Shown here: one piece after another, positions 1-33,569 of the stretch
Numbering within the stretch: position 1 is the stretch's first letter
Layout of the letters: each line of letters opens with the position of its first letter
From: an uncultured Enterobacterales bacterium
Lineage (GTDB): Bacteria > Myxococcota_A > UBA796 > CAJQPC01
DNA: 64,000 nt
Direction: 5' to 3'
Assembly: GCA_964519895.1 (NCBI GenBank)
Contig: CAZFLE010000005.1
Span: 16,417 to 80,416 of the forward strand
Position numbers and translations under genes: made by a program
Notes under the pieces: model-generated
Databases searched by the model: none
Told to the model about the DNA's origin: nothing
Seen by the model: only the letters and a program-made list of their open reading frames with translations

Positions 1-3000
1 GCGGCCAGCTCCTTCTGGACTTCGGCGAGCTCGCGGGGGTTGCAGCCCTGGACCAGGGCAGCGATCTCGTCGCTGTCGCCGTTGCTGCTGATCTTGCTCG
101 TCAGGTCGCTGATGCGTTCGGGGTTCCTGGTGTGGCCGCCGACCTTGTCGTCCTTGTTCACCGCACCGGGCTTGTCGTAGTCCTTGGTGTCGCCCCAGCT
201 GAACCAGCTCTCGGCGTCTTCCCGGCGCTTCTTGTCGACCTCCTTGGCCACCGCGTCGGCGAAGCCCTTGGCGCCCGCGGACCGGTTGTCGTCCTTCTTG
301 AGCTCGCCGGTCTCCATGAAGTGCCAGAGCTGGTGGATCGAGGAGAAACCCCCGTCCTTGGACATGCCCTCGAGCCAGGAGCGGGCCACCAGCGGGTCCA
401 TGCCGGTCTTGGCCGTGGCCGCCTTGATGGCCTTGCCGTCTTCCTGGATCTTGTGGGCCTTGTCCGTGCCCTTCTGGGTCGTCTTGCCCATGGCGAGGGT
501 GTTGGCCTCGTTGAGCATGTCGACGTGTTCGGGCTCCGTGAGGAAGGTGTCCAGGTTCTGCGGGAGGTTGCCGTCGGTGGCGCCGGTGCCGTGGGCCTTC
601 ATGGCGTGGGTCTGGGCGGCCCGGTACTCGACGACGAACGCGGCACGCTCGGAGCGGGACATCGCCGCGAAGGCCTCGGCGATCTTGTCCTCGTCGGCGT
701 CGTCGCCCTTCTTCAGTTGGTCGAAGAGCTTCTTGGAGTTGCTCGCGTAGCGTTCGCTCGTGACGTCGGCCGCGAGCATGCTCTGGGTCAGGTCTTCCGA
801 CGTGTCGATGGCGTCGACCATCTTCAGGCCACTGGTCTCGTCCCCGCACTGCAGGGCCGACTCGAACTTGTCCCGGAGCGTCGGGATGTCCTTCAGCAGC
901 TGCTGCTTCTCGGCGGGGGTCAGGCTGCTGAAGTGGGCCAGGATGGCGTCGTCGTTGCCATCGTCCAGCTTGTCCAGCATTCCCTGCTTCTTCTTCTTGT
1001 AGGCGTCGCTGTTCTTGTCGCAGACCAGGCCCAGCCGGCCCATCTCGGCCTTCTCCTCGGCGGACCACTTGATCTGGTAGCCGTCGTGCCGACCGACCCC
1101 CATCTTCTTCTTCATCGCCAGGGCGAACTTGTCGTCCTTGAGCACACCGGCCGGCGATCGGGCCAGGTGCTCGGCGTAGGCTTCGGGGGACATGCCCTGG
1201 GCGTGGGCTTCGGCGGCGAGCTTCTTGTACTCCTCCTTGCCCACGACGTTCTCGAGCTCGGCCTTGACCCCGACCCGGCGCTCCTCCTCGACCAGCATGC
1301 GCATCTCGTCGGCGTCGATGCCCGCAGCACCGGCGTAGAACTTGACCTGCTTGTCGACGTCGGCCTTGGTGCCTGAACTGCCTGGCTTGTAGATCTGGGC
1401 GCTGGGGGGGAGCTGGGCCTTGATGGCCGCCATGCGGTTGTCGTAGGCGCCGTTGAGCTTGTCGGCGTACTTCTTCAGGGCCTCCTTGAGGGCGTCGCCC
1501 TTGAGTCCCTCGAGCTCCGAGGCGCCCAGCTGGAGCATGGCCAGGTCCTTCAGGGCCTCGAGCTGCTTGGCCTCGGGGAGCTGGCGGATCTTGTGGACCT
1601 GTTTGACGATGGCGTTCTCGGTCCGGACCTCGCTCCACGCCTTCTTCAGGTCCTCGGCAGACAGGCCGGTGCGGCCCTGGAGCTCCTGGAGGATCTTGAG
1701 GCGCTCTTCCGGGGGGAGCTTCTCCAGGTTCTTCAGGCGCTGCTTCATGGCAGCGGACACCACCGGGTTGCCCTCGTCGTCCTGCTTGGGCTGGTAGAGG
1801 TCGTTCAGGGCCTCGTTGGGGTCCTTGCCGGCGGCCTTGGCGTCGGTCAGGAACGCCAGGGCGTCGGCCGCCGAGGCCTTCTCGCCGTCGGCGGCCAGCT
1901 GCGCCTGGATGGCCTTCATGTGCTCGTTGGCTTCCAGGGCGCTGACGGGCTTCTCGGGGGTGGACAGAGCCTTGGCGGCTGCCCGCACGGCGCCCACCCG
2001 CTTGACCGCGTCGGCGGCCATGTTCCGGGTGTCCTTGTCCTGCATCCGGGCGACCCGGGCGGTGTCCTCCTTGGACTTCTGGCGGGCCTTGCCCAGGTCG
2101 CTGGCCACCGAGCCCCAGCCGTCCTCGATCTTGCCGTCGTCGGTGTGCTCGGCGATGTACTGGTCGAGCACGGCGGCGATGCTGCGGCCGTCGGCGAGGG
2201 TCACCGGGGGGTTGGCGGTGAGCAGGGCCCGGATCTGGGCCCGGGTCATGTCGTCGAAGGCGTCCTTGATGTCCTTCTCGCTGGGGTCCTTCTTGTTCAT
2301 GGCGCCGGTGAGGGCCTTGGACTTCTTCTGCCAGCGCTTGGCCCGCCGGTAGGCGATCGGATCGGTGTGCTCGAGCTCGGCGATGCGGTCGGGGTCGGTC
2401 TCGACGTAGTCGGACTCCTTGGTCCGCTCGTCCTTCATCATCGCCAGCAAGGGCTGGTCCATCATCGCCGACCGCGGGGCCGTCTCGATCCACTCCACCA
2501 GGCCCTTGGCGCTGGGGGGGATGCCGGCGAGCTTGCAGGTCTCGACGACGTAGTCGGACGCGGCCTCGGGGGAGTAGGGCTTGCCGGTCTCCTGTTCGAA
2601 GAGCCGCTTCTTCTCTTCCCGATCCTCGTCTTCCTGGTCCAGGGTCTCGAACGCACGGCTGGCGTCCATGCCCCAGCCGATTCCACCAAAGACGTCCTGT
2701 TGCTCGACCGAGACGATCTTCTTGCGGAGGTCTTCCTTTTCCTCGGGCGTCAGGGGAGGATCGTTCTTCAGCAGTCGATCGATGTCCTTGGCGAGGGCGG
2801 GGTGGTCCTCCTTGAGCTCGTTGAGGTGCTCTTCAGCCCGGGTCGCCGCCTTGCTCTTCTTGCCCAGCACGGCTTCCTGGCGGGCGTCCATCTCCTGCTT
2901 GAACGCGACCTTGCCGTTGACCCCTCGCAGGGTGTCGATGTCGATGCCGGTCTTGGAGTTGATGACCCGCAGCAGCGCTTCGACGTCGTCCGGGGAGAGC

Positions 3001-6000
3001 GGCTTGCCGTCCTTGCCCTTGTTGCTCTTGAGCTGCTCGATCTTCTTGGCGAGGGTGGGGTCCCCCTTCTTGGCGCTCTTCAGCGCGGTGTCCAGGCTCT
3101 GTTCGGTCTTGGCGATGTCGGCCTCGACCGCCTCCTTGAGCTTGCCGGGGTCCAGGTCGTGCTGCTCGGCGATGGCGTCGAGCTTCTTCTGGCGGTCCGC
3201 CTCGCTGATGGTGGTGTCGAGCAGGACCTTCTGTGCGGCGGGGAAGCTCGCGGCCTTCTTCTTGTAGTTGTCGGTGCCCCGCCACAAGGTGCCCATGGAC
3301 TGGCCCGTGGACCCGGCCAGGTCGAACATCGCCATGGCCCGTTCCTTGGGGTCCTCGATCTTGGCGATGCGTTCGGTCTCGTCCTTGAGGGCCTTGTTGC
3401 CGACCACCCCGCCCTGGAAGGTGCCAGTGGCGTCCAGGTCGGTGGCCAGGGCGTGGCCTGAGATGAGGTCCGGGTTGCCGATCTCCTTGGCGAGCTTCAT
3501 CGCCTCGTCGCCGCCCTTGTCGAGGATGGCCTTCTGGTCCGGGGTCAGCGCGGTCGGTGCGTTCGGCTTGATCGGCATCGACATGAGCTGGACCGCCTGC
3601 TCGGCGGTGTAGCCCTTGGCCTTGTAGGCCTCGATGCGGTTCTTGGCGGTCTCGTAGTCCCAGCCCTTGTCCTTGTTCGCCTCGGCGAGCTCCGTGGCGC
3701 CCTTGACCTTGGCTTCGGCGTCGATGATCTTCTTGGAGAAGGCTTTCTTCTCGTCGTCGGTGGGGGCCTTGTCGCCAAAGGTCCTGAAGACGCCGTGGTC
3801 GCCCTCTGAGTCATGGGCGGCCTTGGCGAGTTTCTTGACGTCGTCCGGGAGCTTGTCCAGATCTTCCTTGGACACGAAGTTCAGATTGCGCATGAACTCG
3901 GAGGGCTTCATGTCGCGCTGCTTGGCCAGCTCGAACATCTTCTCCCGGCACGCGTCGACGTCCATGTTGACCTTGCCGTCCTTGTCCTTGACCTGGAACG
4001 CCCTGACCGCAGCCTCCCGGTCCTCGTTCATCCGGTGCCAGCGCTCGTTGAGCTTCTCCATGGCCGGCGAGACGTTGGCCTTCTGCTGGCCGTCGGCGCC
4101 CTTGACCGTGGTCTTCTCGTCCCAGACCTTGAGCAGATCGGCCTTGCTGATCTTGGGCTTCTGCTTCTGACCATAGGCGGCGATGGCCTTCTCGCGTTCG
4201 GCCTTGTTCGGGATGGTCTCGTACATGCCCATGACCGCGGAGGCCTGTTCCTCTTCCTTCTCCTGCTTCTTCTGTTCGTCGGTCTTGGTCTCTTCGGCGG
4301 CGGTGTCCTCGGCCTTCTTGTCGTCGGAGACCTTCTTCTCACCCGTGGTCTCTGCGCCCTTTTCGGAGAGGTCCTTCAGGTCCGTCTCGTCCTTCTTCTG
4401 GTCGTCGGTCTTCTCCTCGTCGGCCGGATCCTTGATCACGATGTCGATGAACTCGCCGTCCGGTCCTTCCTTCTTGCCGGCCGGGATGTAGACCACCATC
4501 GACGCGTAGTTGATGTCGAGCAGGGTGCAGTAGGCCTGGAGCACGGGCGCCGGGCAGCCGCCGGCCATCTGCATGTCGCCCACGGCGGAGTCGAAGATGT
4601 CCTTCTTCTTCTTGGCCTCCTTGACCTTGTCCTCCATCGGCTTCAAGGCGGCCCGGTGGGCCTCGAGCTGCTTGGCGGTGAGGCCTGACGCCAGCTCGGC
4701 GGCGGCGATCTCGGTGGGGAGCTCGCCCTCGCGCTTCTGGAGCGTGGCCAGCGACGCGGACAGGCTGACGACCTCGCTGTCCGTGTCGAGGTTCGGCGGC
4801 GGGCCCGGGTCCGTGGCGCCCTCGTGCTTGTCGTCAAAGGCCTTCTTCTTGGCTAGGTAGTCCCGGTTCAGGGCCTGCTTGCGGGTGCCGATGGCCCGGT
4901 TCTTGGACCCGACGCCGATCTGGGTGGTGGTGAGCTCGGCCTTGAGGGTGGAGACCTTCTTCATCGACTCCTGGGACTCGACGGGCAGCTTCTTGAGCTG
5001 CTTGTCGACCAGCTTCGAGAGGTCGGCTTCCTTCTTGGTGACGTCCTTGGCGATCTTCTCGCCCTTCTTCGGCAGCGCCTCGGCGACCTTCTTCGACGTC
5101 TGGATCTCCGCCACCGGCAGCGTGGGCCCGCCACCGCCACCGCCCTTGGGCTGCTTGTCCTGGATCTGCGCCAGGATGGCGTCGAGTTCTTCCTGCTTCT
5201 CGGTCTGGGACTCCTGGAGGGGCTCCATGTCCTCCTGGAGCTCCGTGCGGATCTTCTTCTCCTTGCCCAGGTCCTTGGGGAAGCGCTTGGACTTGGCCTG
5301 GAGGCCCTTGAGGCGAGTGTCCTTGTCCGGGGGCTTCGGCTTGCGGTTCTTCTTCTTGGCGACCGCTGAGAGCTTCTCCAGCTGGGCCTTGCGCTTGTCG
5401 AGCTCGGTCTTGTTCCGGGAGATCTTCTTCTCGACGTCGTCGATCTTGACCTGGACCTCGTCCACGTCATAGCCGAGCTCGCCGAGCTGGTAGGCGATGT
5501 CGTCGAGCTCCCACTGGAGGTCGTCGCGCAGCCGCTCGAGTTCCTCCAGGGTCGGCGGCTCGTCCTTGGCGGCGGTCTCTTCTTCCTTTTCCTCGGAGGT
5601 GGTCGAAGGCGCATCGCCGGTCTTGGTGCCCCCTTCCTTGGCGAGCTTGTCGATGTCCTCGGTGGACTTCTTCTTGTCCTCTGCCTTGGAGGCGTCGTCC
5701 TCCTTGGCGTCCTCCTCGGTGACCTCGCCCTCGCCCTCGCCTTCCTCCTCTTCCTCTTCCTCATCCTTCGGCGCCTCTTCCTTGGGACCCTCGGCCTTGG
5801 CGGCTTCGGGAGCCACAGGCGGTGCTGGTGCGTTCAGGGCCTTGACCACCGCCTTGCCCACCACCTTGAAGCCGGCGGCGCCGCCGCGGGCGAGCAGTGC
5901 AGCGTCGGCCTGGTTGGAAGACTCGTCGCCCGTGGCGGTCGAGCGTTCGGTCTTGGGCGTGTCGGTGGAGACCGGGGAGCTGTCGGCCGCAGGAGCGTCC
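1..6000 (-). other. Lys/Glu/Asp-rich helical tail of the giant protein (more than 2,000 aa, incomplete) with coiled-coil stretches and degenerate annexin-like repeats
   Basis: Examples: 'LEELERLRDDLQWELDDIAYQLGELGYDVDEVQVKIDDVEKKISRNKTELDKRKAQLEKL' (about 5560-5380), poly-E 'KDEEEEEEEGEGEGEV' (about 5790-5700), and recurring 'x-D-[DE]-x-x-I-x-x-x-[LF]-x-x-[LM]-x-x-x-[EQ]' units ('DADEDKIAEAFAAMSRSERAAF', 'DSDEIAALVQGCNPRELAEVQKEL'). AAG, GAG and GAC codons dominate. Confidence 0.6.
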
Positions 6001-9000
6001 GTGGTCGTGGCCTGGACCGGGGCAGGTGTCTCCTCGACGGTCCGGGTGAGCTTGGGGGCCGGCTCGTTCGTCGTGGCTGTCGCCTCGTCCTGCTTCAGCG
6101 CGTCGGGCTGCTCCGGGGCCTTGACCTCCTGGGGGGTGTTCGCCCGCTCGAAGGCGCCGCCGTAGAGCTCTTCGGACTCGGCGTTCAGCGCGTCGATCCG
6201 GGCCTGTTCAGAGTCGGTGAGCTCCCTGCCCTCGCGGGTGGCCTGGGCCTGGAGGCTGCGGGTCTCCTCGTAAATCTCGTGGCCCCGGCCGCCCTTGACC
6301 TCGAGAATCTCCCGGAGGTGGAGCTGGAGCTCGACCACGTGCCCGTTGGGCATGCGCACGTTGAGCAGCATGTCCCGGTAGCCGCCCGGCGCCGGGTTCT
6401 CGAAGCGGTCCTTCATGCGCACGATCTCGAACTGACCGTGGATGCTCTCCAGGCCCTTGTAGAGGGCGTCCATGGAGTCGTACTGGATGCTGCTGCGGGA
6501 CAGGTCCGTGAGCTGGGAGGCGTCGCCCCCGTACTCGGTGTCCATCTTCTCCGTGGCCCGCTCCCGACCCTTCAGGCCCGGTGGGTACATGGCCTCGCCA
6601 CCGGTGGCCGCCGAGATGGCGTCGGTGGCGTCGTGGAGCATGACGTCGGCGACGGCGGCGTCGCCGTAGAGCGCGTCCAGATCGTCGGTGGACTGGGTCC
6701 GGTCCCGGCCAGCGATGTCGTCGGCGACACTCTTGCTGACGGCTGCGTTGCCGGTCAGGGACTCGGTCTCGGGCACGGCCTGCTTCTTGGCCGGGTAGGG
6801 GGTCGGGTCCACACCCAGGCGCCGGGCGGTGTCCTGCAGGCTCTCGCCGACCTGGTGGGCGTCCCGGACCCGCACTGCCTCGTCGTGCTTGCTCGCGGGC
6901 ACCGTGAACTTGCCGTCGGGGCCTTCCAGGGTCAGCGTGGTGATGTTGGGTTCGTCGCTGGGCCCGTTCCAGGCCCGATCCAGCTGCTGCGCCGGGGTGA
7001 GCGGGGTGTCTGCCGAAGTGTCCGTGGTCGGTTCTGAGGTCGGTCCTGGGGTGATCTCCGGCGCCGTCTCTGGGACGGTGTCGTCGGTGGGTGCGCTGGA
7101 CTCCCGCGGCACCTCCCGATCCCGCTGCTCGCCGTAGCCGTCCGGGTGCGGGTTCGGGTTCCGGGGCACGTCCTGGAGCTCGCTCGTCCCGGTCTTGCGG
7201 AAGCTCTCGGGGAACGCCGAGACCACCCGACCCGTGGCCGGCTCATAGACCACGCGAATGCGCACGCCGTCCCGCTCGCCCCAGAACACGTGTCGGTTGG
7301 GGTCCCCGTTCTTGTTGTACAGGTTCGGGGAGTTGTTGGGGGACGCCTCGGCCTTGGGGTCGGTGACGATGTCGCTGACCCGGTTGACGATGTCGACGTC
7401 GGTCCAGGTGTTCGGGAACTCGGTCTTGTCGTAGACCATGCGACCGTTCTCGTGGCCGCCGCCGGTGCGGTCGCCCTCGAGGATGTGCTCCCGAGCCTGC
7501 TGGTCGAGCACGTCGACATCGGACAGCGGCTCGGACAGGTCCTTGGCATCGGCCGAGTCGCCGATGGGGTGGCTCGGGTAGTGACTCGGATCCAGACCCA
7601 GCCGGGCCGCGGTCTCCTGGAGGCTCTCCCCGGGGCGGTGAGCGGCCTGGACCCGGGTCGCGTCGCCGTACTCCGACGCGGGCAGGGTGACCTTTTCTCC
7701 CTGGACGTAGACGGTCGCCATCGACGGCTGCTCGGACTGGTTCTTGCCGTCGAAGTGGTCCTGGAGGGACTGGAGCTGGTCCGGGGTGACCCCCTGGCCG
7801 TCTGTGTCGGGGCCGCTGTCCGGGGTCTGGTCGCTGGCGCCGTTCGTCACCAGGTCCGGGGTCTCGTCGCCCCCGGTGGTGTTGACCGTGACCTCGCCGC
7901 CTTCCCGCAGCGCGACGTCGCCATCGGCGGTCTTGATCAGCTCCTTGTCGCCCTTGACCACGGCCATGGAGCCGTCGCCACCGATGGCGACGGCGTCGTT
8001 CATGGAGCCGGTCTCGCCGACCTCGGTGCCGCCGCTCTTGCCGTGGCCGCTGCCGTCGCCAGCCACCAGGGCCGAGCCGCCGTCGGTGGTCACCAGGGAG
8101 CCGTCGCCGGTCTCGGTGACGGTGGCGGTGCCGCCCTGCTTGGCGGCCTCGTTCATGACGCCGTCGACGTCTGTGGCCGAGTTCGGTGCCGTGTCGACGC
8201 CCCCGGCCTGGAGCTCGGCCTTGACCTCGGCGGCGGACGGCGCTGCGGCCTCGACGTCGGCCTCGGTGACCTGGAGGTTCTGTTCGGCGTCGCTGCCAGC
8301 CGTGTTGGCGGCCGAGACTTCGGTCTCCTTGGTCTTGACCCGCTGCTGCCACCCCTCGGCGAGCTTCTCCAGGACGCTGGTGACGGTCGCGTTGATGGTG
8401 GCGGTGGCGACCTGCTGGAATGCGGTCTCGGGGTCGACGGGCTTGCCGGTCGCCACGTCGATGAGGACGTTGGTGGTGGACCCCGCCAGCTCGCCGCCCC
8501 CACCAGATGCACCCGATGCGACGGCCTGCTTCCACAGGGGACTCTTCTCGTCGGACCACGCTTCGCCCCAGGCGCTGGTGTTGATGGCCTCGCTGGTCAT
8601 CGCCGTGACCGAGCTGGTGGTGCCCTTGCGCAGGGCGCCACCGCCCACATTCAGCAGGCCCTCGCCCACACCCTTGTCCCAGGTCTTGTCCTTGAGGCCG
8701 GTCTCGACACCGCCCTCGAGTGCCCCGGTGCCGAACGCCACGATGCCTTCGCCCAGGATCTTCTTGCCCCGGCTGGCGCCCTTGCCGAACAGCCCTCCGG
8801 CGGCCTGGAAGCGGGCGCCGACCCCGGCGGTGACGACGCTGGCCGCCGTGTTGCCCAGGTCGGCCACGGCCTGCTCCCAGCCGTAGCGGCCGCCCTTGAC
8901 CGCGTAGTTGATGCCCATCGAGGTCAGGCCAGTGATGCCGGCGACCCACATGGCCGCGGCGGGCCCCAGGGTGCCGCCGCTCAGCACCGTGGCGACGATG

Positions 9001-12000
9001 GCGATGAGCGCGGCCGCCGCGGTGGTCAGGATGTTCGCCAGCCGGTCCTGGGCCGCCCGGTAGTTCTCGGCGCTGATGCCCACGTAGTCGCACAGGATCA
9101 GGAAGCGCTCTTCCTGTTCCTTGGTGCCGTTGAACTTGCCGTCGGCCTTGTAGACCGAGTCGGGCTTGGAGCCGGGGACCTTGCAGGCCCGGACCAGCCG
9201 CTCGAGCTCGGCCATGTGGGTGGCCAGGTTGGCCCGCTCGTTGCCGGTGATGCCGTAGAACTCGGCGGCGGTCATGAGCACGTCGCCGGCGCCGGTGGAC
9301 TCGTCGCCCACCACCCACTCGTTCTGGAGCCGGGCGAGCTCCAGGCGCTGGTCCAGGGTCATGTACTTGGGGTCGCCGAGGAGCAGCTCCTCGACCTCGC
9401 GCCGCTCGTCGCCGGAGAGCTCGGAGCCCCAGCCGGAGTGGTCCTTGCCGGTCTTGCGGTTGTTGACGCCCAGAGCCGCGTCCAGGGCGTCGGTGTCGCC
9501 GGCCTCGAGCCCATAGGCCTGGGCGTGCTTGGTGGCGAAGATGCCGCGTAGCGCTTCGACCTCTTCCGGCCGCATGCCGGTCAGGGCCCGCTTGATCGCG
9601 TCCTCGTCGGTGCCCCCACGGTCGGTGGCGAGTCGGATCTGGTCGGCCGCCACCCGGGCCGTGTTGGTCCCGTCGGTCATCATGTTGGTGACCAGGTCGC
9701 GGCCGACCCCGGACTTGTCGTCGCCGCCGGGGAACATGGTCTTGACCGCGTCGCCGGTGGAGCGCTCGTAGTCCTTCTCGTACTGGGCCTGGAAGGCGTC
9801 GTTGCGCTTGCGCTGCTCGTCCTGGGCGGCCTGGCGGACCTTCTCGTCGGGGCTGTGGAGCCGCTCCTGGAGCTGGGCGTTGCCGTAGAGCGCGGTCTCC
9901 ATGCGCTTCATGTCGGGGCCGCCCTTGCGGGTGCGCTCGACCTCGAAGGCGTGGACCTGGGCGGCGGTGGAGTCCCGGCCCTCGGTCGCCAGGGCGACGG
10001 CCAGGTCCTTGTTCGGCCCCTCCAGCTTGCGGGTGATGGTCTGGGGCTGGCCGCCGTGGTGGCCGCCGTGGGGGTTGTGGACCTCGCGATCCTTGGTGAT
10101 GAAGTCGACGAACTGGGCTTGGGCCGCGCCCTGGTCGATGGGCTGGGTGGTGGTGGCCCCTGCGGCGCCCTTGTTCTCGATGTGGGCGAATTCCCGCTGC
10201 AGCTCGGCCAGCTGCTCGGGCTCGACGCCTCGGAGCGCGTCGGTCAGGTCGTCGGGCTTGCCGCTGCGGCGGGCTTTCTCGATCTTGTCGCGCAGCCGGT
10301 AGGCGTCGGCGCGGCGGGTGTTGCCCACCAGGAGCGACTCGGTGACGTTCAGGTCCGTGCCGCCCAGGTTGTCCTTGAGCCGGGCCTCGGTCGCCGACCA
10401 GTCCCCGAGCTTCTTCATGGCGTTGCGGTCGTCTTCGTTCAGGTCCCGCAGGACCGCCTCGATCTGGGCCTCATCGTCGCCGTACCAACGCATGTTGGTC
10501 TCGAGCTCCAGCCGGGCGCCTTCGGCCCGGTTGCCGATCAGGTACTGCTTGGCGACCTTGAGCTCGTCGCCGGACAGGTCGTCGTCCAGCCAGGACCGCA
10601 GGCTGGAGTCCCGGGGGAACAGGTCCGTCCAGATCATCTCCAGGGCCTTGCCCTTGAGGAAGGTCATGGGCCGGAGCGCATTGAAGAGCTTGTTCTCGTC
10701 GGTCCCCATGCCCGACATGGCGTCGTAGCAGCTGTCCGCCCGCTTCACGAGGTCCTTGCGGAGACCGGACGCCGCCTGCTCCGCCTTGGGGGCCACCGTG
10801 GTGGGGAACTTGGTCATGATGGCGTCGAGCTGGCCGCCGTAGGCGGTCACCTGGGCATCGAGGGCCGTCTCGGTCTCGGTCTTGAGCACGCCCAGGTCGG
10901 TGACGCACTTCGCCTTGTAGGCGGTCATGTCCTCCTGGACCGGGGCGACGTAGTCCTTCATCGCCTGGTCCACGGCGCCGCCCACGAGCACCATGGACTC
11001 GCCAAAGGCCAGCGACGCGTCCTCGATGCCCTTGGCCTTTTCCGTCATCAGGGCGTCGGCTTCGGTCTCGTTGTCCGACGCGATCTTCTCGATCTTCTCC
11101 AGGTCGCCGGCGACACGGCCGTCGATCGTGACGTGGGCAGCGTCCAGGGAGCCCTGGAGGTCGGCCAGGTTCTGGCGGTGGAACGCCCCCAGGGCGTCCT
11201 GTTGCTGGGTCAGGTAGGCCTGGGCGTCGTCGGCGGTGAGGAAGGTCTGGTCCGGCAGGCTGTCCGAGATGCCCTGGACGAAGTCCCGGTAGGACTGGGT
11301 GAAGGTGCCGGCGGCGGTGGTGAGCTGGGCCTCGACGCTGTCGGCGATCTCGGCCATGTCCGTCTCGAGCTGGGTCGAGATGTCCTGGAGCTCGCCGACA
11401 GCGGTGGTCTCGTCCTCGTCGAGCTGGGTGATGGCGGTGGACCGGGTGTCCTCGATGCTGGTCTCGGCCGAGGTCCGATCGGTGGCGAGCTGGCCGGTGG
11501 CCTGGGAGTAGGACCCGTCCAGGGCCCCCAGGGTGTGGTCGCGCACCGCCATGACCTGGTCGGCCAGGGGCTTGAGCAGGCCGTCGACCTTCTTCTGGTA
11601 GATGGCCTTGCTGGCGGTGACCTCGGCGGCCTTGGCCGGACCGCCCTTGGTGCCCATGTCCTTGGCGGCTTCGTCCAGGGCCTTGGCTGCGGTCTCCCGG
11701 CGGACCTCTTGCTTGGCCCGCTCCAGGATGTCGCCGCCACTGTCGGGAAAGGCCTCCTTGGCGAGCTCTCTCTTGCGGGTCTTGAAGGTGGCGGCCTTTT
11801 CGGTGGCCTTGGCCTGGAATTTGGGGGCCTTGTCCTTCAGGACGGTCTCGAAGGGCTCTACCCAGGTCTCGCCGAGCCCCAGCACCTCGCCCATGCCCAG
11901 GTCAAAGGTCGTCTGGGACTTCGTCAGGCCGTCGGCGTGGCCCTGTTGGAGCTGGCCCTCGGCGGCGGTGGCGTCGATGTCGACCTGGGACGTGGCCATG

Positions 12001-13949
12001 TCGGCGGCGGTGCCCACCCCGTCCCGGGCCGTGCTGTAGGCGGTCTGAACGCGGCCGATCGCGGCGGTGGCCTTGCCCTGCAGGTCCATGGCCTTGCCGG
12101 ACATCACGCTGTGCACGGTGCCAGCGAGCTCCTGGGCCTTGGCGATGGCCTCGCCCTGGAGGGTCTCGGCCCGGGTCCGGAGCTGACCGATGCCGGCCTG
12201 GATCAGGGCCTGGTGCTGCTCGGGGGACTGGCCCGTCTGGCGGGTGACGGCGTCGACCTGGTCTTGGTCCAGGTCGGGCATGCACATGGCGACTTCAGGG
12301 ATGCCGCCGACGGCCGGGGTCTCGTCGGGCTGGAGCGGTGGCGCACCCCCCCCGCCACCGCCGCCACCGGTGGCCGCGGGCTCGCCGCCGCCGCCCTCGC
12401 CGTCGGCAGCCGCGGGTTCTTCGGCACCCTCCTCGGCCTCGCCGCCTTCGGCGTCGGCTTCGCCTTCGCCCTCCTCCTCGGCGGGGGCTTCCTCGGCGGG
12501 CGGGGCCTCTTCCTCTTCCTTGTCCCCGGCGGCGTCGCTCTTGTCCTTGTCCTCCTTGTTCTCGGCCTTCTCGCCGTCCTTGTCCTCGCCTTCCTCTTCC
12601 TTGTCCTCGCCCTCGGACCCGGCCTTGGGCCCTTCCTCGACCTCCTCCTCGTCGGGGCCGACCTCGAGCTCCTGGCGGTGGATGCTCGTGCCGCCGCGCT
12701 CGTGCTGGGTCTGGGCTTGGGTAAACTCCGCGGCGTCGACTTCGACGGCGGTGGCCTGGGCCGTGAGGCTCGGCGCCGCGACCAAGCCGTGGCTCTCGGC
12801 GGCCTCGGCCTCGCGTTCCAGAGGGTCGCCGGGCATGGACACGACGACCTGGCCCGCCGCGGGCAGGGGAATGCGGCCCTCGTCGTGCTGGACCACGTGG
12901 GTGAGCTCGTGGGCGATGAGCGCGTCGCCGTCGGTGGTGCCGGGGCTGTAGGCCCCGTCCCGGAAGTAGATGTCCCGGCCGACGGTCAGGGCCCTGGCCC
13001 CGGCGATCTGGCAGGCCAGGGCAGCCGCCGAGCCGATGTGGATCTGGACCCCTCGGAGCTGGCGGCCCGGAGCCAGCCGGTCGACGACGTCCTGGGGAAG
13101 GCTGAGCCCGGCGCTCTGCCCCAGCACGGTGCGAAGGTGCTGGGGCATCTCCCGGTCCCCGGCCTGGTCCCGGCGGGCCATGGCCGCCACGCTGGCCCCG
13201 GACACCTGCTCAGCCAGGGCAGCGGTCGCCCCGGAGAGGCCTTCGTAGGGGGCCATGGCGGACTGGTGGAAGGCGATGTCGTCGGCCGACGGGAACCCCA
13301 CCCGATCCACGAGCTCGTCGAGGCCCGTGTCGGTGTGGAGGTCCTGGTGGAGCGCGAGCAGGTCGGCCCGGGCGGCGTCGGCCAGGTCCGGCTCGCCAGT
13401 CCACTGCTCCAGGTTGGTGAGGTGCTCGGCCACCGTGCGCAGGCCCTTGCCGACCATGACGGCGTGCAGGCTGTCTTCGATCACGTCGGCCGATGGCGGC
13501 GGGGGATGGGCCGGCAGCTGGCCGAGCAGGCGGCTCAAGATGGCGAGGCCCGCCGAGTCGACAGGGAGCCGAGCGGTGAGTCCCCACGCGTCGGAGGTTG
13601 CCGGCTCGCGGGTGCCGTTGAGCTCGGCCAGCTGCTCCCGCTCCCGCCAGGCGACCTCGTAGAGCGGGGTGACCATCTGCAGCCAGGAGCGGTCGGCCTG
13701 CCAGGGCAGGTAGGGGCCGATGTCGAACCCGGTGGCCTCGGCCACGTCGAGGAGGTGGGCCAGGTAGAGGTCCTCGGAGTCCCCGGGCCCCTCGACCCTC
13801 AGGCGGGCCAGGTGGCGATTTCCGAACCGCTGCTGCAGCGCGGCCACGGCCTCGAGACCCCTGTCGGGCGCACGCGCAACGGTGCCTTCGGACCCCGTCT
13901 CGGGGCCCTGGCCTTTGCGGCCTTTGCGCGCGCGGGGGAGATGTGCCAT
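1..13949 (-). CDS. Giant multidomain polymorphic-toxin-like protein, at least 4,649 aa; the 3' end lies beyond the left edge of the window
   Basis: ATG at 13949 ('MAHLPRARKGRKGQG..') has an in-frame TGA 8 codons upstream. Every minus-strand ORF in the track between 1 and 13949 lies in the other two frames, so this frame has no stop. Hand translation at 13949, 13140, 12960, 10760, 7560, 6720, 4500, 1020 and position 5 stays in one frame with GC3-rich codons and protein-like sequence. Domain evidence is listed in the sub-features. Confidence 0.88.
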   Translation of the reverse strand, partial: MAHLPRARKGRKGQGPETGSEGTVARAPDRGLEAVAALQQRFGNRHLARLRVEGPGDSEDLYLAHLLDVAEATGFDIGPYLPWQADRSWLQMVTPLYEVAWREREQLAELNGTREPATSDAWGLTARLPVDSAGLAILSRLLGQLPAHPPPPSADVIEDSLHAVMVGKGLRTVAEHLTNLEQWTGEPDLADAARADLLALHQDLHTDTGLDELVDRVGFPSADDIAFHQSAMAPYEGLSGATAALAEQVSGASVAAMARRDQAGDREMPQHLRTVLGQSAGLSLPQDVVDRLAPGRQLRGVQIHIGSAAALACQIAGARALTVGRDIYFRDGAYSPGTTDGDALIAHELTHVVQHDEGRIPLPAAGQVVVSMPGDPLEREAEAAESHGLVAAPSLTAQATAVEVDAAEFTQAQTQHERGGTSIHRQELEVGPDEEEVEEGPKAGSEGEDKEEEGEDKDGEKAENKEDKDKSDAAGDKEEEEAPPAEEAPAEEEGEGEADAEGGEAEEGAEEPAAADGEGGGGEPAATGGGGGGGGAPPLQPDETPAVGGIPEVAMCMPDLDQDQVDAVTRQTGQSPEQHQALIQAGIGQLRTRAETLQGEAIAKAQELAGTVHSVMSGKAMDLQGKATAAIGRVQTAYSTARDGVGTAADMATSQVDIDATAAEGQLQQGHADGLTKSQTTFDLGMGEVLGLGETWVEPFETVLKDKAPKFQAKATEKAATFKTRKRELAKEAFPDSGGDILERAKQEVRRETAAKALDEAAKDMGTKGGPAKAAEVTASKAIYQKKVDGLLKPLADQVMAVRDHTLGALDGSYSQATGQLATDRTSAETSIEDTRSTAITQLDEDETTAVGELQDISTQLETDMAEIADSVEAQLTTAAGTFTQSYRDFVQGISDSLPDQTFLTADDAQAYLTQQQDALGAFHRQNLADLQGSLDAAHVTIDGRVAGDLEKIEKIASDNETEADALMTEKAKGIEDASLAFGESMVLVGGAVDQAMKDYVAPVQEDMTAYKAKCVTDLGVLKTETETALDAQVTAYGGQLDAIMTKFPTTVAPKAEQAASGLRKDLVKRADSCYDAMSGMGTDENKLFNALRPMTFLKGKALEMIWTDLFPRDSSLRSWLDDDLSGDELKVAKQYLIGNRAEGARLELETNMRWYGDDEAQIEAVLRDLNEDDRNAMKKLGDWSATEARLKDNLGGTDLNVTESLLVGNTRRADAYRLRDKIEKARRSGKPDDLTDALRGVEPEQLAELQREFAHIENKGAAGATTTQPIDQGAAQAQFVDFITKDREVHNPHGGHHGGQPQTITRKLEGPNKDLAVALATEGRDSTAAQVHAFEVERTRKGGPDMKRMETALYGNAQLQERLHSPDEKVRQAAQDEQRKRNDAFQAQYEKDYERSTGDAVKTMFPGGDDKSGVGRDLVTNMMTDGTNTARVAADQIRLATDRGGTDEDAIKRALTGMRPEEVEALRGIFATKHAQAYGLEAGDTDALDAALGVNNRKTGKDHSGWGSELSGDERREVEELLLGDPKYMTLDQRLELARLQNEWVVGDESTGAGDVLMTAAEFYGITGNERANLATHMAELERLVRACKVPGSKPDSVYKADGKFNGTKEQEERFLILCDYVGISAENYRAAQDRLANILTTAAAALIAIVATVLSGGTLGPAAAMWVAGITGLTSMGINYAVKGGRYGWEQAVADLGNTAASVVTAGVGARFQAAGGLFGKGASRGKKILGEGIVAFGTGALEGGVETGLKDKTWDKGVGEGLLNVGGGALRKGTTSSVTAMTSEAINTSAWGEAWSDEKSPLWKQAVASGASGGGGELAGSTTNVLIDVATGKPVDPETAFQQVATATINATVTSVLEKLAEGWQQRVKTKETEVSAANTAGSDAEQNLQVTEADVEAAAPSAAEVKAELQAGGVDTAPNSATDVDGVMNEAAKQGGTATVTETGDGSLVTTDGGSALVAGDGSGHGKSGGTEVGETGSMNDAVAIGGDGSMAVVKGDKELIKTADGDVALREGGEVTVNTTGGDETPDLVTNGASDQTPDSGPDTDGQGVTPDQLQSLQDHFDGKNQSEQPSMATVYVQGEKVTLPASEYGDATRVQAAHRPGESLQETAARLGLDPSHYPSHPIGDSADAKDLSEPLSDVDVLDQQAREHILEGDRTGGGHENGRMVYDKTEFPNTWTDVDIVNRVSDIVTDPKAEASPNNSPNLYNKNGDPNRHVFWGERDGVRIRVVYEPATGRVVSAFPESFRKTGTSELQDVPRNPNPHPDGYGEQRDREVPRESSAPTDDTVPETAPEITPGPTSEPTTDTSADTPLTPAQQLDRAWNGPSDEPNITTLTLEGPDGKFTVPASKHDEAVRVRDAHQVGESLQDTARRLGVDPTPYPAKKQAVPETESLTGNAAVSKSVADDIAGRDRTQSTDDLDALYGDAAVADVMLHDATDAISAATGGEAMYPPGLKGRERATEKMDTEYGGDASQLTDLSRSSIQYDSMDALYKGLESIHGQFEIVRMKDRFENPAPGGYRDMLLNVRMPNGHVVELQLHLREILEVKGGRGHEIYEETRSLQAQATREGRELTDSEQARIDALNAESEELYGGAFERANTPQEVKAPEQPDALKQDEATATTNEPAPKLTRTVEETPAPVQATTTDAPAADSSPVSTDTPKTERSTATGDESSNQADAALLARGGAAGFKVVGKAVVKALNAPAPPVAPEAAKAEGPKEEAPKDEEEEEEEGEGEGEVTEEDAKEDDASKAEDKKKSTEDIDKLAKEGGTKTGDAPSTTSEEKEEETAAKDEPPTLEELERLRDDLQWELDDIAYQLGELGYDVDEVQVKIDDVEKKISRNKTELDKRKAQLEKLSAVAKKKNRKPKPPDKDTRLKGLQAKSKRFPKDLGKEKKIRTELQEDMEPLQESQTEKQEELDAILAQIQDKQPKGGGGGGPTLPVAEIQTSKKVAEALPKKGEKIAKDVTKKEADLSKLVDKQLKKLPVESQESMKKVSTLKAELTTTQIGVGSKNRAIGTRKQALNRDYLAKKKAFDDKHEGATDPGPPPNLDTDSEVVSLSASLATLQKREGELPTEIAAAELASGLTAKQLEAHRAALKPMEDKVKEAKKKKDIFDSAVGDMQMAGGCPAPVLQAYCTLLDINYASMVVYIPAGKKEGPDGEFIDIVIKDPADEEKTDDQKKDETDLKDLSEKGAETTGEKKVSDDKKAEDTAAEETKTDEQKKQEKEEEQASAVMGMYETIPNKAEREKAIAAYGQKQKPKISKADLLKVWDEKTTVKGADGQQKANVSPAMEKLNERWHRMNEDREAAVRAFQVKDKDGKVNMDVDACREKMFELAKQRDMKPSEFMRNLNFVSKEDLDKLPDDVKKLAKAAHDSEGDHGVFRTFGDKAPTDDEKKAFSKKIIDAEAKVKGATELAEANKDKGWDYETAKNRIEAYKAKGYTAEQAVQLMSMPIKPNAPTALTPDQKAILDKGGDEAMKLAKEIGNPDLISGHALATDLDATGTFQGGVVGNKALKDETERIAKIEDPKERAMAMFDLAGSTGQSMGTLWRGTDNYKKKAASFPAAQKVLLDTTISEADRQKKLDAIAEQHDLDPGKLKEAVEADIAKTEQSLDTALKSAKKGDPTLAKKIEQLKSNKGKDGKPLSPDDVEALLRVINSKTGIDIDTLRGVNGKVAFKQEMDARQEAVLGKKSKAATRAEEHLNELKEDHPALAKDIDRLLKNDPPLTPEEKEDLRKKIVSVEQQDVFGGIGWGMDASRAFETLDQEDEDREEKKRLFEQETGKPYSPEAASDYVVETCKLAGIPPSAKGLVEWIETAPRSAMMDQPLLAMMKDERTKESDYVETDPDRIAELEHTDPIAYRRAKRWQKKSKALTGAMNKKDPSEKDIKDAFDDMTRAQIRALLTANPPVTLADGRSIAAVLDQYIAEHTDDGKIEDGWGSVASDLGKARQKSKEDTARVARMQDKDTRNMAADAVKRVGAVRAAAKALSTPEKPVSALEANEHMKAIQAQLAADGEKASAADALAFLTDAKAAGKDPNEALNDLYQPKQDDEGNPVVSAAMKQRLKNLEKLPPEERLKILQELQGRTGLSAEDLKKAWSEVRTENAIVKQVHKIRQLPEAKQLEALKDLAMLQLGASELEGLKGDALKEALKKYADKLNGAYDNRMAAIKAQLPPSAQIYKPGSSGTKADVDKQVKFYAGAAGIDADEMRMLVEEERRVGVKAELENVVGKEEYKKLAAEAHAQGMSPEAYAEHLARSPAGVLKDDKFALAMKKKMGVGRHDGYQIKWSAEEKAEMGRLGLVCDKNSDAYKKKKQGMLDKLDDGNDDAILAHFSSLTPAEKQQLLKDIPTLRDKFESALQCGDETSGLKMVDAIDTSEDLTQSMLAADVTSERYASNSKKLFDQLKKGDDADEDKIAEAFAAMSRSERAAFVVEYRAAQTHAMKAHGTGATDGNLPQNLDTFLTEPEHVDMLNEANTLAMGKTTQKGTDKAHKIQEDGKAIKAATAKTGMDPLVARSWLEGMSKDGGFSSIHQLWHFMETGELKKDDNRSAGAKGFADAVAKEVDKKRREDAESWFSWGDTKDYDKPGAVNKDDKVGGHTRNPERISDLTSKISSNGDSDEIAALVQGCNPRELAEVQKELA
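6280..6680 (-). other. RelA/SpoT-homologue (RSH, alarmone-synthetase-like nucleotidyltransferase) toxin-type domain
   Basis: Base-by-base translation gives 'PGLKGRERATEKMDTEYGGDASQLTDLSRSSIQYDSMDALYKGLESIHGQFEIVRMKDRFENPAPGGYRDMLLNVRMPNGHVVELQLHLREILEVKGGRGHEIYEETR'. It follows the RelA_SpoT order: basic 'K.R....K', 'D...R..i', 'kD....P...GYR.l...v', 'vElQl', 'H.iYe..R'. Confidence 0.7.
6792..6950 (-). repeat. Pre-toxin module copy 2 (LysM-like), immediately N-terminal to the RelA/SpoT-like domain
   Basis: 'TTLTLEGPDGKFTVPASKHDEAVRVRDAHQVGESLQDTARRLGVDPTPYP', a paralogous duplicate of 7566-7722. Confidence 0.6.
7195..7500 (-). other. EndoU-like (bacterial EndoU nuclease family) toxin domain
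   Basis: Base-by-base translation gives 'EHILEGDRTGGGHENGRMVYDKTEFPNTWTDVDIVNRVSDIVTDPKAEASPNNSPNLYNKNGDPNRHVFWGERDGVRIRVVYEPATGRVVSAFPESF'. It matches the EndoU_bacteria pattern: 'H.l.G.....GGH', 'FP..Ws...i...i..v..dP', 'G..i.VV.....G.ivtAfP'. Confidence 0.75.
7566..7722 (-). repeat. Pre-toxin module copy 1 (LysM-like, ~55 aa), immediately N-terminal to the EndoU domain
   Basis: 'ATVYVQGEKVTLPASEYGDATRVQAAHRPGESLQETAARLGLDPSHYP' aligns with copy 2 ('PAS', 'RV..AH..GESLQ.TA.RLG.DP..YP'). The 'GESLQETAARLGLDP' core resembles the LysM 'GDTL..IA..yGv' core. Confidence 0.6.
8690..9045 (-). other. Hydrophobic transmembrane / glycine-zipper segment of the giant protein
   Basis: 'LANILTTAAAALIAIVATVLSGGTLGPAAAMWVAGITGLTSMGINYAV', then 'LGNTAASVVTAGVGARFQAAGGLFG' and 'GEGIVAFGTGALEGGVETG'. 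These are the only strongly hydrophobic stretches in the protein. Confidence 0.65.
9540..10745 (-). other. Annexin-type helical repeats (several copies)
   Basis: 'ADSCYDAMSGMGTDENKLFNALRPM' (10745-10670) and 'RLATDRGGTDEDAIKRALTGMRPEEVEALRGIF' (about 9640-9540) carry the annexin endonexin signature G-x-G-T-[DE]-E-x-x-[LI]. Degenerate copies lie between them ('WYGDDEAQIEAVLRDLNEDDRNAM', 'LTDALRGVEPEQLAELQREF'). Confidence 0.55.
10760..12300 (-). other. Long Ala/Gln/Thr/Asp-rich predicted alpha-helical region (apolipoprotein-like or coiled-coil-like)
   Basis: The translation has almost no Pro or Gly breaks and amphipathic periodicity (e.g. 'AKAQELAGTVHSVMSGKAMDLQGKATAAIGRVQTAYSTARDG..'). No specific family recognised. 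Confidence 0.5.
12335..12680 (-). other. Acidic Glu/Asp/Gly/Lys low-complexity linker in the giant protein
   Basis: Translated 'EVGPDEEEVEEGPKAGSEGEDKEEEGEDKDGEKAENKEDKDKSDAAGDKEEEEAPPAEE..GGGGGGGAPP'. Confidence 0.8.
12870..13100 (-). other. DUF4157-type metallopeptidase-like domain (HExxH) in the giant protein, about aa 285-360
   Basis: Translated 'LRGVQIHIGSAAALACQIAGARALTVGRDIYFRDGAYSPGTTDGDALIAHELTHVVQHDEG'. This matches the DUF4157 pattern ('VRvH.G..A......A.AfT.G.dI.F..g.Y.P.t..G..LlAHELaHVvQ'). The HELTH codons are at 12911-12897. Confidence 0.8.
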
Positions 13950-13973
13950 GGGCAGGAGGCTCTGGCGGAATCA

Positions 13974-14029
13974 TAGGGTTCACCGGCACTCTGCGCACCT
14001 GGTTTCTCCCCCGTCATCGGGTAGGGTTC
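13974..14029. promoter_or_regulatory. Divergent promoter spacer with an 8-bp direct repeat TAGGGTTC (13974-13981 and 14022-14029)
   Basis: The 85-bp spacer lies between the giant gene start (13949, minus) and ATG 14035 (plus). 'TAGGGT' fits a TAnnnT -10 hexamer, and the second copy ends 6 nt before ATG 14035. On the minus strand, 'TATGAT' (complement of 13971-13976) lies about 20 nt upstream of ATG 13949. Confidence 0.3.
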
Positions 14030-14034
14030 GCCCG

Positions 14035-16325: not shown

Positions 16326-16329
16326 CGGC

Positions 16330-23660: not shown

Positions 23661-23666
23661 ACCGGC

Positions 23667-25790: not shown

Positions 25791-25830
25791 CTCCGCCTCC
25801 CTGCGGGCCAGCCCCCCTCGCATACACGGT

Positions 25831-25847
25831 TTGGCACACCCTGCCAA
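25831..25847. promoter_or_regulatory. Palindrome TTGGCA-N5-TGCCAA in the divergent promoter region
   Basis: Perfect 6-bp arms, centred in the 125-bp spacer between the GT-C gene start (25790, minus) and the paralog-3 start (25916, plus). Confidence 0.3.
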
Positions 25848-25885
25848 GCTTCGGCGGGCCGATCCGCCGGCTCTCCAGAATCGAA

Positions 25886-25893
25886 TAGAGTCC
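25886..25893 (+). promoter_or_regulatory. TAGAGTCC motif (candidate -10-like element) upstream of the 25916 gene
   Basis: The same octamer recurs at 44330-44337 (plus) and 56316-56309 (minus), each 22-31 nt upstream of a lipoprotein start codon. It is flanked here by direct GAATCG repeats. Confidence 0.3.
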
Positions 25894-25915
25894 TCCGAAT
25901 CGTGCCCACCTGGTC

Positions 25916-28342: not shown

Positions 28343-28373
28343 CCGTGCTGGCTGACACCGCGTCGGTGACCCC

Positions 28374-30884: not shown

Positions 30885-30903
30885 TCGGTGGTCTATCGCC
30901 AGG

Positions 30904-31992: not shown

Positions 31993-32021
31993 GCCGCCAG
32001 TGTAGTCAACCGCAGGCCCGA

Positions 32022-33509: not shown

Positions 33510-33569
33510 GTCGCTCCGTGGCGTGGCTGTCGCCCTAACGCTTCACACCGCCCCCAGGGTCCCCCCGGA

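Follow-up and report, generated by a model that had tools for sequence, protein, structure and literature searches.

Extracellular contractile injection systems (eCIS) have DUF4157 as a core marker, and the toxins that carry it are described with an N-terminal DUF4157, linkers that may be longer than 1,000 amino acids (aa) and C-terminal toxin domains (PMC8213781, PMC11297309). In AlgoCIS, the DUF4157 proteins Cgo1 and Cgo2 occupy the lumen of the tube (PMC8894135). Annotations of certain published eCIS toxins combine DUF4157 with LysM and with a domain for a toxin or enzyme (PMC11297309), and fusions of DUF4157 to RelA/SpoT homologue (RSH) synthetases have already been catalogued (PMC12691689). 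Proteins of Haliangium ochraceum with the architecture DUF4157-annexin-(TM)-Ntox_3/Peptidase_M90, where TM denotes a transmembrane segment, were described by Kodavali et al. (2014), who proposed that the protease processes the toxin and that the annexin delivers it (PMC3894181). The loading of DUF4157 effectors and the function of DUF4157 are open questions in the field, and engineering work assumes that the cargo lies in the tube lumen. Here, a stretch of 64,000 nucleotides from an uncultured bacterium (contig CAZFLE010000005.1 of assembly GCA_964519895.1, positions 16,417 to 80,416 of the forward strand; henceforth the window) was analysed. The leftmost 14 kb hold the 5′ half of a gene of ∼27 kb for a protein of ∼9,030 aa, which we read as a DUF4157/annexin polymorphic toxin with eCIS-linked delivery as set out below (rough probability 0.6).

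The giant gene lies on the minus strand. Its frame runs from window position 13970 to position 3 with no stop in 4,656 codons, and the first start in this frame, an ATG at 13949, gives at least 4,649 codons up to the left window edge. When all six frames were read with edge-truncated open reading frames (ORFs) included, only this frame was free of stops; each of the other five contains between 8 and 142 over the same 13,970 bases. The base composition predicts a stop about every 52 codons, and the probability of finding none in 4,656 is ∼1e-39. The GC contents at codon positions 1, 2 and 3 are 0.68, 0.44 and 0.94, respectively, in a genome with a GC content of 70.6%. The third-position value (GC3) lies between 0.91 and 0.96 in all 500-codon tiles, including the low-complexity junction described below and the sequence beyond it, and the frame is therefore taken to be translated along its whole visible length. 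None of the plus-strand open stretches that lie wholly inside the gene (1–13,700) passed the same GC3 test, so ORFs such as 9855..13976 are antisense shadows. The sole plus-strand stretch that passed, 13768–15522, belongs to a neighbouring gene of 495 aa, and its overlap with the giant gene is confined to the first ∼180 bases. The giant gene is absent from the ORF list of the window because ORFs that leave the window are not listed. Both the unlisted frame of at least 4,649 codons and the antisense nature of the plus-strand ORFs had been noticed in an initial annotation made from the letters of the window; both observations were exact, and the gene is larger than was claimed.

The gene for the 495-aa neighbour was used as an exact-match anchor for recovering public contigs (JGI, ENA MEGAHIT and Logan). 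Seven contigs were recovered; the giant gene is present on six of them, with an identical start call. The gene is complete within ENA contig k141_1360873 (ERZ27249630, 59,981 bp), where it encodes 9,030 aa and by our arithmetic occupies about 7,758–34,850; versions cut by contig ends encode 8,829 (a Logan contig), 6,879, 6,879, 2,604 and 911 aa. The stop codon lies ∼13.1 kb past the left window edge. The four long loci that were compared (L001–L004) are 99.91–99.99% identical to the window over 19–21 kb, and the assemblies differ from it at 2–17 positions per ∼20 kb. The samples include IMG 3300009481 and 3300009703 as well as ERZ27249630, ERZ27251151 and ERZ27251152, and the Logan contigs include SRR6056609_2499428. 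The source metagenome of one contig, IMG 3300009703, is a hydrothermal reference data set in a study of Santorini (PMC13534618). Six assemblies, made with three pipelines from at least five samples, agree on the uninterrupted frame and show neither an in-frame stop nor a frameshift. A chimeric assembly was rejected on these grounds, mis-assembly being very unlikely, and the giant ORF is confirmed as a real gene about twice as long as the part visible in the window.

The true length was thus obtained from public gene calls, and the leftward extension called for in the initial annotation was achieved to that extent; the DNA to the left of the window was not reached. The near-identical contigs were read to 10 kb on either side of the neighbour gene and reach no further left than the window. 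Exact-match scans of genome contigs and of metagenome contigs for a leftward extension found nothing, and a protein-pattern scan of genome contigs found no relative. An exact-sequence cluster look-up with the contig-cut fragment of 2,604 aa returned no entry, and the C-terminal tile of the visible protein had no match in a word-indexed protein database. The giant protein and its contig-cut fragments gave no self matches in a word-indexed search of 5.8 billion clusters or in a library of 1.84 billion representatives. The gene is nonetheless on record in the contig index, and such collections may systematically lack very long proteins like this one. The domain reading that follows covers residues 1–4,649 (the N-terminal 51%); residues 4,650–9,030 are treated by inference only.

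Translation and a hydropathy scan of residues 1–60 revealed no hydrophobic stretch and no Sec-type signal. A '[FLY]GN' motif occurs at a comparable position in five of the six family N-termini, and ∼230 further residues separate this leader from DUF4157. By analogy with PROCIS data on AlgoCIS cargo (10.64898/2026.05.27.728243), the leader may act as a loading signal. DUF4157 was matched by PF13699 at 75.1 bits (E 5e-21, cutoff 22) with its HExxH motif intact, and the acidic linker behind it is evident from translation and composition; both had been proposed in the initial annotation. Residues 545–1317 align in tblastn with locus L010 (43% identity, E 5e-140) and residues 547–1542 with locus L009, which encodes the relative P0026 (28.5% identity over 1,060 columns, E 4e-60). 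Pfam gave only a weak apolipoprotein-like match to the helical region.

Annexin-type repeats are moderately supported by lines of evidence that are each weak yet concordant. Three GxGTD-type motifs are present (GMGTDE at residue 1080, GGTD at 1196 and GGTDED at 1445). Matches of the region in a phmmer search of the PDB are nearly all annexins, the best being annexin VI (E 3.4e-4), and the top 50 Foldseek matches of its model are annexins or annexin fusions, with E values of at least 3.2e-4 and low TM-scores. PF00191 is carried by the relatives P0023, P0024, P0027 and P0028, whereas the Pfam Annexin profile stayed below threshold on the giant protein itself (12.7 bits, E 0.14). The hydrophobic 'Gly-zipper' segment that had been reported downstream was recovered in the hydropathy scan. 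It contains a TM-like stretch (residues 1635–1669) and a conserved KGGRYGWE motif, and the block is collinear with three other giant proteins (P0014, P0015 and P0017).

Two internal cassettes follow, each composed of a pre-toxin module and a predicted toxin domain: EndoU in the first and a Tas1-like RSH domain in the second. The two module copies are ∼85 aa long and 43% identical over 88 aa (self-BLAST, E 4.5e-15), in agreement with the initial annotation, which had placed the same module ahead of each toxin. Copy 1 was modelled at a predicted local distance difference test (pLDDT) value of 70–88 (model ma1999723e6ea). The name 'LysM-like' given to this module was not borne out. No match to LysM (PF01476) was obtained for either 93-aa module even at E ≤ 10, the only hit being HTH_38 at E 0.027, and a two-copy profile of the module found nothing relevant among PDB sequences; the LysM identity was therefore rejected.

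The predicted RNase domain of the first cassette was matched by PF14436 (EndoU_bacteria) at 44.7 bits, above the cutoff of 25.3, with the best stretch covering profile positions 68–128 of 129. The region shares 50% identity with the C-terminal end of P0012, a protein annotated with PF14436, and the motifs HILEGDRTGGGH and KTEFP are identical there; from their place in the family, these motifs, with the conserved His...His and Lys, are the putative catalytic positions. No PDB sequence matched the domain with either the single sequence or a two-sequence profile. For the second cassette, Pfam RelA_SpoT (PF04607) scored 21.3 bits (E 3.5e-4), below its cutoff of 27. Divergent toxin RSH domains often score under this cutoff. 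The best PDB match in phmmer was Tas1 (6ox6, E 3.1e-6), and the model of the domain (pLDDT > 90) also had Tas1 as its top Foldseek match (E 1.6e-9, TMt 0.68), followed by 8vx3, RelP, RelQ, Rel and CapRel, small alarmone synthetases among these. The domain also forms the C-terminal toxin of 12 otherwise unrelated proteins of 333–866 aa, with basic, Asp, GYRD and ExQxH positions in common, and because it ends these smaller proteins it appears to behave as a polymorphic-toxin module. One protein annotated with PF04607, P0001 (594 aa, from a JGI metagenome), has two tandem Tas1-like RSH domains, an unusual doubling of a toxin domain that parallels the doubled cassettes of the giant protein. Among the profiles expected in the initial annotation, DUF4157 and EndoU_bacteria exceeded their cutoffs, whereas RelA_SpoT and Annexin did not; models of single segments recovered the RSH fold and, at low TM-scores, matches to annexins, and the EndoU part was modelled poorly. 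The RelA/SpoT-like identity claimed there stands by sequence and fold, although not by Pfam score.

The K/E-rich helices of more than 2,000 aa, with which the domain order in the initial annotation ends, are not a tail but the start of a second unit, with ∼4,400 more residues after them. An exhaustive HMMER search of 1.84 billion representatives found only nine relatives of the last 1,200 visible residues, and the best relatives of the region are giants themselves: P0014 (7,141 aa), P0015 (5,245 aa) and P0017 (3,628 aa; GCA_041389545.1). In BLASTP, residues 3484–4648 align with residues 1207–2225, 843–1868 and 591–1643 of these three proteins, respectively. Identities to the giants are 26–31% over 600–1,000 aa in the K/E region and 22–24% in the annexin/Gly-zipper block. 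The order in P0014 is N-terminal motif, DUF4157 (98.5 bits), K/E region, helices, annexin-like repeats and Gly-zipper, followed by ∼3,300 aa with transglutaminase-like, two RSH-like and HExxH domains. A further giant member, in locus L016 (GCA_043814015.1, JBDRKM010000337.1, 2,200–18,174), is split by frameshifts into several called genes, with uncalled gaps, and has the same order (DUF4157 at 2522–2842, the K/E region at 5532–9489, annexin/Gly-zipper at 13193–13723 and a 3,608-aa gene leaving the locus). The K/E region of the window protein is homologous to the stretch immediately after DUF4157 in both P0014 and the L016 gene. Internal repeats in the region are weak (best E 0.001 in self-BLAST of tiles), and a recurrent 'A-x3-G-[LIVM]-[DSP]' motif was dropped since its counts were no higher than in shuffled sequences. 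Pfam tiles and BLASTP detected no homology for the junction between the two units.

The visible part of the protein ends at a motif, GCNPRELAE, that corresponds to residue ∼2212 of the 7,141 in P0014. The 4,381 unread residues of the giant protein are comparable in size to the 4,916 aa that remain in P0014 after this motif and, by comparison with P0014, probably repeat the scheme of helices, annexin repeats, Gly-zipper and further toxins. The '[FLY]GN' motif is common to the window protein and the other giants (P0014, P0015, P0017 and L016), DUF4157 is found in P0014 and L016, and multi-domain toxin arrays after the Gly-zipper are common to the window protein and its giant homologues. The other giants consist of a single unit (DUF4157, K/E region, annexin, Gly-zipper and toxins), whereas the window protein has a complete short unit ahead of it. 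The toxin sets also differ: EndoU and a Tas1-like RSH domain in the window protein, as opposed to transglutaminase-like, RSH-like and HExxH domains in P0014. From this comparison we infer a tandem two-unit protein that possibly arose by fusion of two neighbouring effector genes. The order of membrane binder, hydrophobic segment and toxins recurs in every family member, including the small proteins P0023 and P0024, which lack DUF4157. The coordinates of the features are given in Table 1.

Table 1. Features of the giant gene and its neighbour in the window (residue numbers refer to the giant protein)
Feature	Residues	Window position	Strand	Basis
Visible N-terminal 4,649 codons of the ∼9,030-codon gene	1–4,649	3..13949	-	Open frame, GC3 periodicity, public contigs
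Hydrophilic, basic, Gly/Pro-rich leader; motif LQQRFGNRHLARL at 38–50	1–60	13770..13949	-	Translation
DUF4157/eCIS_core; HExxH is HELTH at 347	295–358	12876..13067	-	PF13699
Acidic, Gly-rich low-complexity linker	∼430–560	12270..12662	-	Translation, composition
Helical region homologous to P0025 and P0026	∼560–1070	10740..12272	-	tblastn
Annexin-type repeat region (moderately supported)	∼1070–1630	9060..10742	-	PDB phmmer, Foldseek, motifs, relatives
Hydrophobic Gly-rich 'Gly-zipper' segment	∼1635–1860	8370..9047	-	Hydropathy scan, alignment
Gly/Asp/Thr-rich spacer	∼1900–2040	7830..8252	-	Translation, composition
Pre-toxin module, copy 1	2043–2127	7569..7823	-	Self-BLAST
Predicted EndoU-type RNase toxin domain; motifs HILEGDRTGGGH and KTEFP	∼2150–2250	7200..7502	-	PF14436
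Pre-toxin module, copy 2	2303–2388	6786..7043	-	Self-BLAST, alignment A3
Predicted RSH-fold nucleotide pyrophosphokinase toxin domain, Tas1-like	∼2400–2610	6120..6752	-	PDB phmmer, Foldseek
Pro/Ala/Thr/Glu-rich junction of units 1 and 2	∼2611–2800	5550..6119	-	Translation
K/E-rich helical region, start of unit 2	∼2801–4649	3..5549	-	HMMER, BLASTP
495-aa gene, divergent, the only immediate visible neighbour		14035..15522	+	ORF, anchor for contigs

Two of the relatives gave additional observations. In locus L005 (GCA_041389545.1, JAWKRQ010000021.1, ∼9,500–10,000), the sequence 'MARHDQGP...VGAVFGNRAVQRAM' lies just upstream of P0017 in another frame and corresponds to the N-terminal motif of the family; probably, either P0017 was called from an incorrect start or the metagenome-assembled genome (MAG) contains a frameshift. 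P0023 (1,116 aa; L011 4856–9039 and L012 1227–5410) comprises canonical annexin repeats, a Gly-zipper and a C-terminal domain. Its gene is followed after 12 bp by a gene for 273 aa with no Pfam match, and the two form a candidate toxin–immunity pair.

The link to eCIS was sought in the surroundings of the relatives as well as in DUF4157. The gene for P0026 (L009) lies directly 3′ of a Tail_P2_I baseplate gene, five unannotated ORFs and a gene for a WHD+AAA (Cdc48-like) ATPase, and this position after the AAA ATPase is the usual place of eCIS effectors. The five ORFs between Tail_P2_I and the ATPase had no matches, and a PHROGs scan of this tail-like cluster found nothing beyond the ATPase. The size of the protein restricts the ways in which such a system could carry it. 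The lumen of AlgoCIS measures 90.2 nm × 3.6 nm (PMC8894135), which amounts to ∼918 nm3 by our arithmetic. From the 499.7 kDa of the visible half, the 9,030-aa protein was calculated to have a mass of ∼0.97 MDa and a volume of ∼1,170 nm3 at 1.21 Å3/Da. Since this exceeds the lumen volume, the intact protein cannot be the lumen cargo of an AlgoCIS-sized particle, and it would have to undergo proteolytic processing, for which its own HExxH domain is a possible agent, or be partly loaded or housed in a much longer particle.

Under eCIS-linked delivery, the protein would be synthesized in the cytoplasm with no Sec signal and would then be handed over to, or co-released with, a phage-tail-like eCIS, with the N-terminal leader as the recognition signal. 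The annexin repeats would bind the membrane of the target cell, and the Gly-rich hydrophobic helices would insert and carry the downstream toxin cassettes across it. Inside the target, the EndoU domain would cleave RNA and the RSH domain would pyrophosphorylate adenine nucleotides, giving (p)ppApp and depleting ATP. A broader interpretation is offered tentatively: a protein with an eCIS marker and two tandem delivery units (each a membrane binder, a translocation segment and a toxin array) that is too large for known tubes may mean either that eCIS handle, process or externally carry cargo ∼10 times larger than any documented, or that DUF4157–annexin proteins are autonomous, self-translocating toxins mistaken for eCIS cargo.

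A number of points weigh against eCIS-linked delivery of a toxin. The C-terminal 49% of the protein lies outside what was read. The EndoU assignment comes from Pfam alone and the AlphaFold model of this part is of low confidence; the RelA_SpoT score is below the Pfam threshold and product specificity is not readable from sequence, and (p)ppGpp is the product of certain exported RSH enzymes (PMC12691689). Taken one by one, the lines of evidence for annexin are weak (E 1e-4 to 1e-2, with low TM-scores), and a role in membrane translocation for the Gly-rich segment is presumptive. No immunity gene was seen in the window, the 3′ flank of the giant gene lying outside it. The tail-like cluster in L009 was identified by Tail_P2_I and the Cdc48-like AAA ATPase only. 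Several of the remaining points also favour the main rival, a mega-toxin that delivers itself independently of eCIS, which would be a further way round the size problem and which we regard as a real if doubtful possibility. Such a protein would leave the producing cell through lysis or by some other export route, bind through its annexin repeats, use its own Gly-rich translocon and free its effectors by proteolysis, in the manner of MARTX (multifunctional autoprocessing repeats-in-toxin) or large clostridial toxins although not by common ancestry with them. The whole protein is too big for the known eCIS lumen, and the order of binder, hydrophobic segment and toxin is kept even in the stand-alone P0023 and P0024. 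No phage-tail or eCIS genes were found within 50 kb on the 5′ side of the giant gene, and tail-like genes adjoin only one of the eight relatives with usable context, the other seven having none within 10 kb. Moreover, DUF4157 is dispensable for loading into AlgoCIS, for which a disordered N-terminal region is needed (10.64898/2026.05.27.728243). Set against self-delivery are the high specificity of DUF4157 for eCIS loci (odds ratio 2,614) and the frequency of 'orphan' eCIS toxins far from the operon (PMC8213781), as well as the classic effector position of P0026. The visible half, in addition, contains no Sec signal, no type I secretion system (T1SS)-type repeat and no autoprocessing cysteine protease, and no export route can be named.

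It is improbable that the protein is an effector for a different contact-dependent system, for example a type VI secretion system (T6SS). The closest solved relative of the RSH domain, Tas1, is a T6SS effector, several of the RSH-toxin relatives have TM-rich N-terminal parts, and hydrophobic segments ahead of the toxin are typical of TM-bearing T6SS effectors. DUF4157 is also 'sometimes present in T6SS effectors' (PMC11297309, PMC8894135). However, PAAR, VgrG, Rhs, Hcp and chaperone domains were not found in the visible protein or the adjoining 50 kb, a mass of ∼1 MDa is far above known T6SS cargo and the one informative genomic context is eCIS-like (an Afp15-type AAA ATPase and Tail_P2_I). 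More improbable still is an artefactual single frame, or a recent fusion, by read-through and without function, of two neighbouring toxin genes in which unit 2 lost its start and its DUF4157. Two complete units are indeed joined by a low-complexity junction, one-unit relatives exist (P0014, P0025 and P0026) and MAG versions of relatives are broken by frameshifts (L016 and possibly L005), but the frame is the same in all six assemblies, the GC3 values through the junction and beyond indicate that both halves are under coding constraint in frame, and two genes truly fused in evolution would nonetheless form a single gene. We consider least probable of all, and very unlikely, a giant structural or cell-surface protein (a cytoskeletal or envelope coiled coil) with domesticated enzymatic domains. 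Helical, K/E-rich or low-complexity stretches with no assignable function make up over half of the visible sequence, and Myxococcota are rich in very large genes (10.1101/2023.11.21.568195); yet both enzymatic domains belong to families that act as interbacterial toxins and recur, by shuffling, as C-terminal toxin modules of many proteins that are otherwise unrelated, DUF4157 marks effectors and P0014 has at least four further toxin-like domains.

The start of the 495-aa gene is separated from that of the giant gene by 85 bp. The two genes adjoin in six of the seven recovered contigs; the remaining contig (L008) ends 22 bp upstream of the 495-aa gene. This protein had no Pfam match and no match among PDB sequences. 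The 50 kb on the 5′ side of the giant gene encode sulfatases, LTD and MopE proteins, glycosyltransferases, oxidoreductases, CotH, FG-GAP/ASPIC proteins, an MFS transporter, PLD and RCC1, a repertoire that fits Myxococcota, although weakly; a relative at 43–56% identity is labelled Myxococcota. The source is probably a member of this phylum living in marine or hydrothermal sediments. A DUF938/methyltransferase-like gene (198 aa) is followed by one for a protein of 1,155 aa that contains five lamin-tail domains as well as Cu-binding motifs of the MopE type (together 15729–19797, minus strand), and further proteins with MopE motifs are encoded at 57950–59122 (with RCC1 repeats) and 59216–60748 (NosD/PMP-like). 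At least three sulfatase genes lie within 19939–33542 (19939–21843, plus strand; ∼26.8–28.3 kb, plus strand; 32022–33542, minus strand), in a cluster that also holds a PMT_2/STT3-like glycosyltransferase gene (23667–∼25800, minus strand); two large ORFs with no Pfam match lie nearby (28356–30884, plus strand; 33570–36137, minus strand). The minus-strand gene at 39293–42841 encodes a large secreted-type protein with CotH kinase, LTD, F5/8 type C and chitobiase C-terminal domains, and beside it are a di-haem peroxidase/RoxA-like gene and a gene for an FG-GAP/ASPIC protein.

A DUF4157 protein of ∼9,030 aa with relatives of 3,600–7,100 aa breaks the current assumption about cargo size and provides a test case in which cleavage, partial loading and other delivery can be told apart. 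It would indicate that the Haliangium-type scheme of DUF4157, annexin, hydrophobic segment and toxin can be scaled to multi-effector arrays and even duplicated in tandem, as a bacterial parallel to MARTX-type multi-effector toxins made from different building blocks. The annexin/Gly-zipper block is a candidate for a module of membrane translocation that could be transferred to other proteins, and the second cassette would be a new context for Tas1-like (p)ppApp-type toxins.

In the initial annotation the combination of domains was not recognized as a described family. Its parts are known, however: DUF4157 with annexin, TM segment and toxin (PMC3894181), DUF4157 with linker and toxin (PMC8213781) and DUF4157 with an RSH domain (PMC12691689). 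The likeness to MARTX drawn there is one of principle only, in that several unrelated effectors lie inside one very large polypeptide with putative membrane-interaction regions. Pfam tiles searched at E ≤ 5 gave neither RtxA glycine-rich repeats nor the inositol-hexakisphosphate-activated cysteine protease (CPD) in the 4,649 visible residues, no T1SS genes were found in the 50 kb beside the giant gene, and the giant protein differs from MARTX toxins in its effector families, in its N-terminal marker (DUF4157) and in taxon. Membership of the MARTX family was rejected, since none of its defining domains was found in the visible half, and the comparison stands as an analogy.

With Tas1/Apk-type (p)ppApp synthetase toxins and exported alarmone synthetases the giant protein has the RSH synthetase fold in common, Tas1 being the best match. 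Tas1 itself belongs to the PAAR-linked T6SS effectors and has an immunity protein, Tis1, whereas the RSH domain here is internal to a giant DUF4157 protein. T6SS effectors of the Tse6/Tas1 class carry hydrophobic helices just before the toxin, which are thought to take it across the inner membrane of the target. The hydrophobic helical segment upstream of the toxins resembles this arrangement, but it is far longer, is rich in Gly and comes after annexin repeats, and the giant protein has neither prePAAR/PAAR nor an Eag chaperone gene.

The closest parallels are the eCIS-associated toxins (EAT11, EAT14, Cgo1 and Cgo2) and the Haliangium proteins. With the former, the giant protein has in common a hydrophilic candidate leader, DUF4157 with HExxH, a long linker, one or more toxin domains and the lack of a Sec signal. 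It is 7–18 times larger than the characterized cargos (Cgo2, 1,228 aa; Cgo1, 498 aa), has at least two predicted toxin domains that are internal rather than C-terminal, adds annexin repeats, a Gly-zipper and a tandem two-unit layout, and exceeds the AlgoCIS lumen in volume. With the Haliangium proteins, compared by their published description, it shares a metalloprotease-like DUF4157, GxGTD annexin repeats, a TM segment, a toxin and a probable origin in Myxococcota; those proteins have one toxin and are of ordinary size, and the paper contains no K/E body, cassette duplication, EndoU or RSH domain or second unit. A preprint on giant bacterial genes mentions neither DUF4157 nor this giant family (10.1101/2023.11.21.568195). 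The features that we did not find described are the scale of 9,030 aa (3,600–7,100 aa in the relatives), the internal arrays of toxin cassettes, the duplicated pre-toxin module and the tandem two-unit layout. Against this background, the giant protein is an extreme effector built from recognized parts, and it challenges the model in which such effectors travel as lumen cargo.

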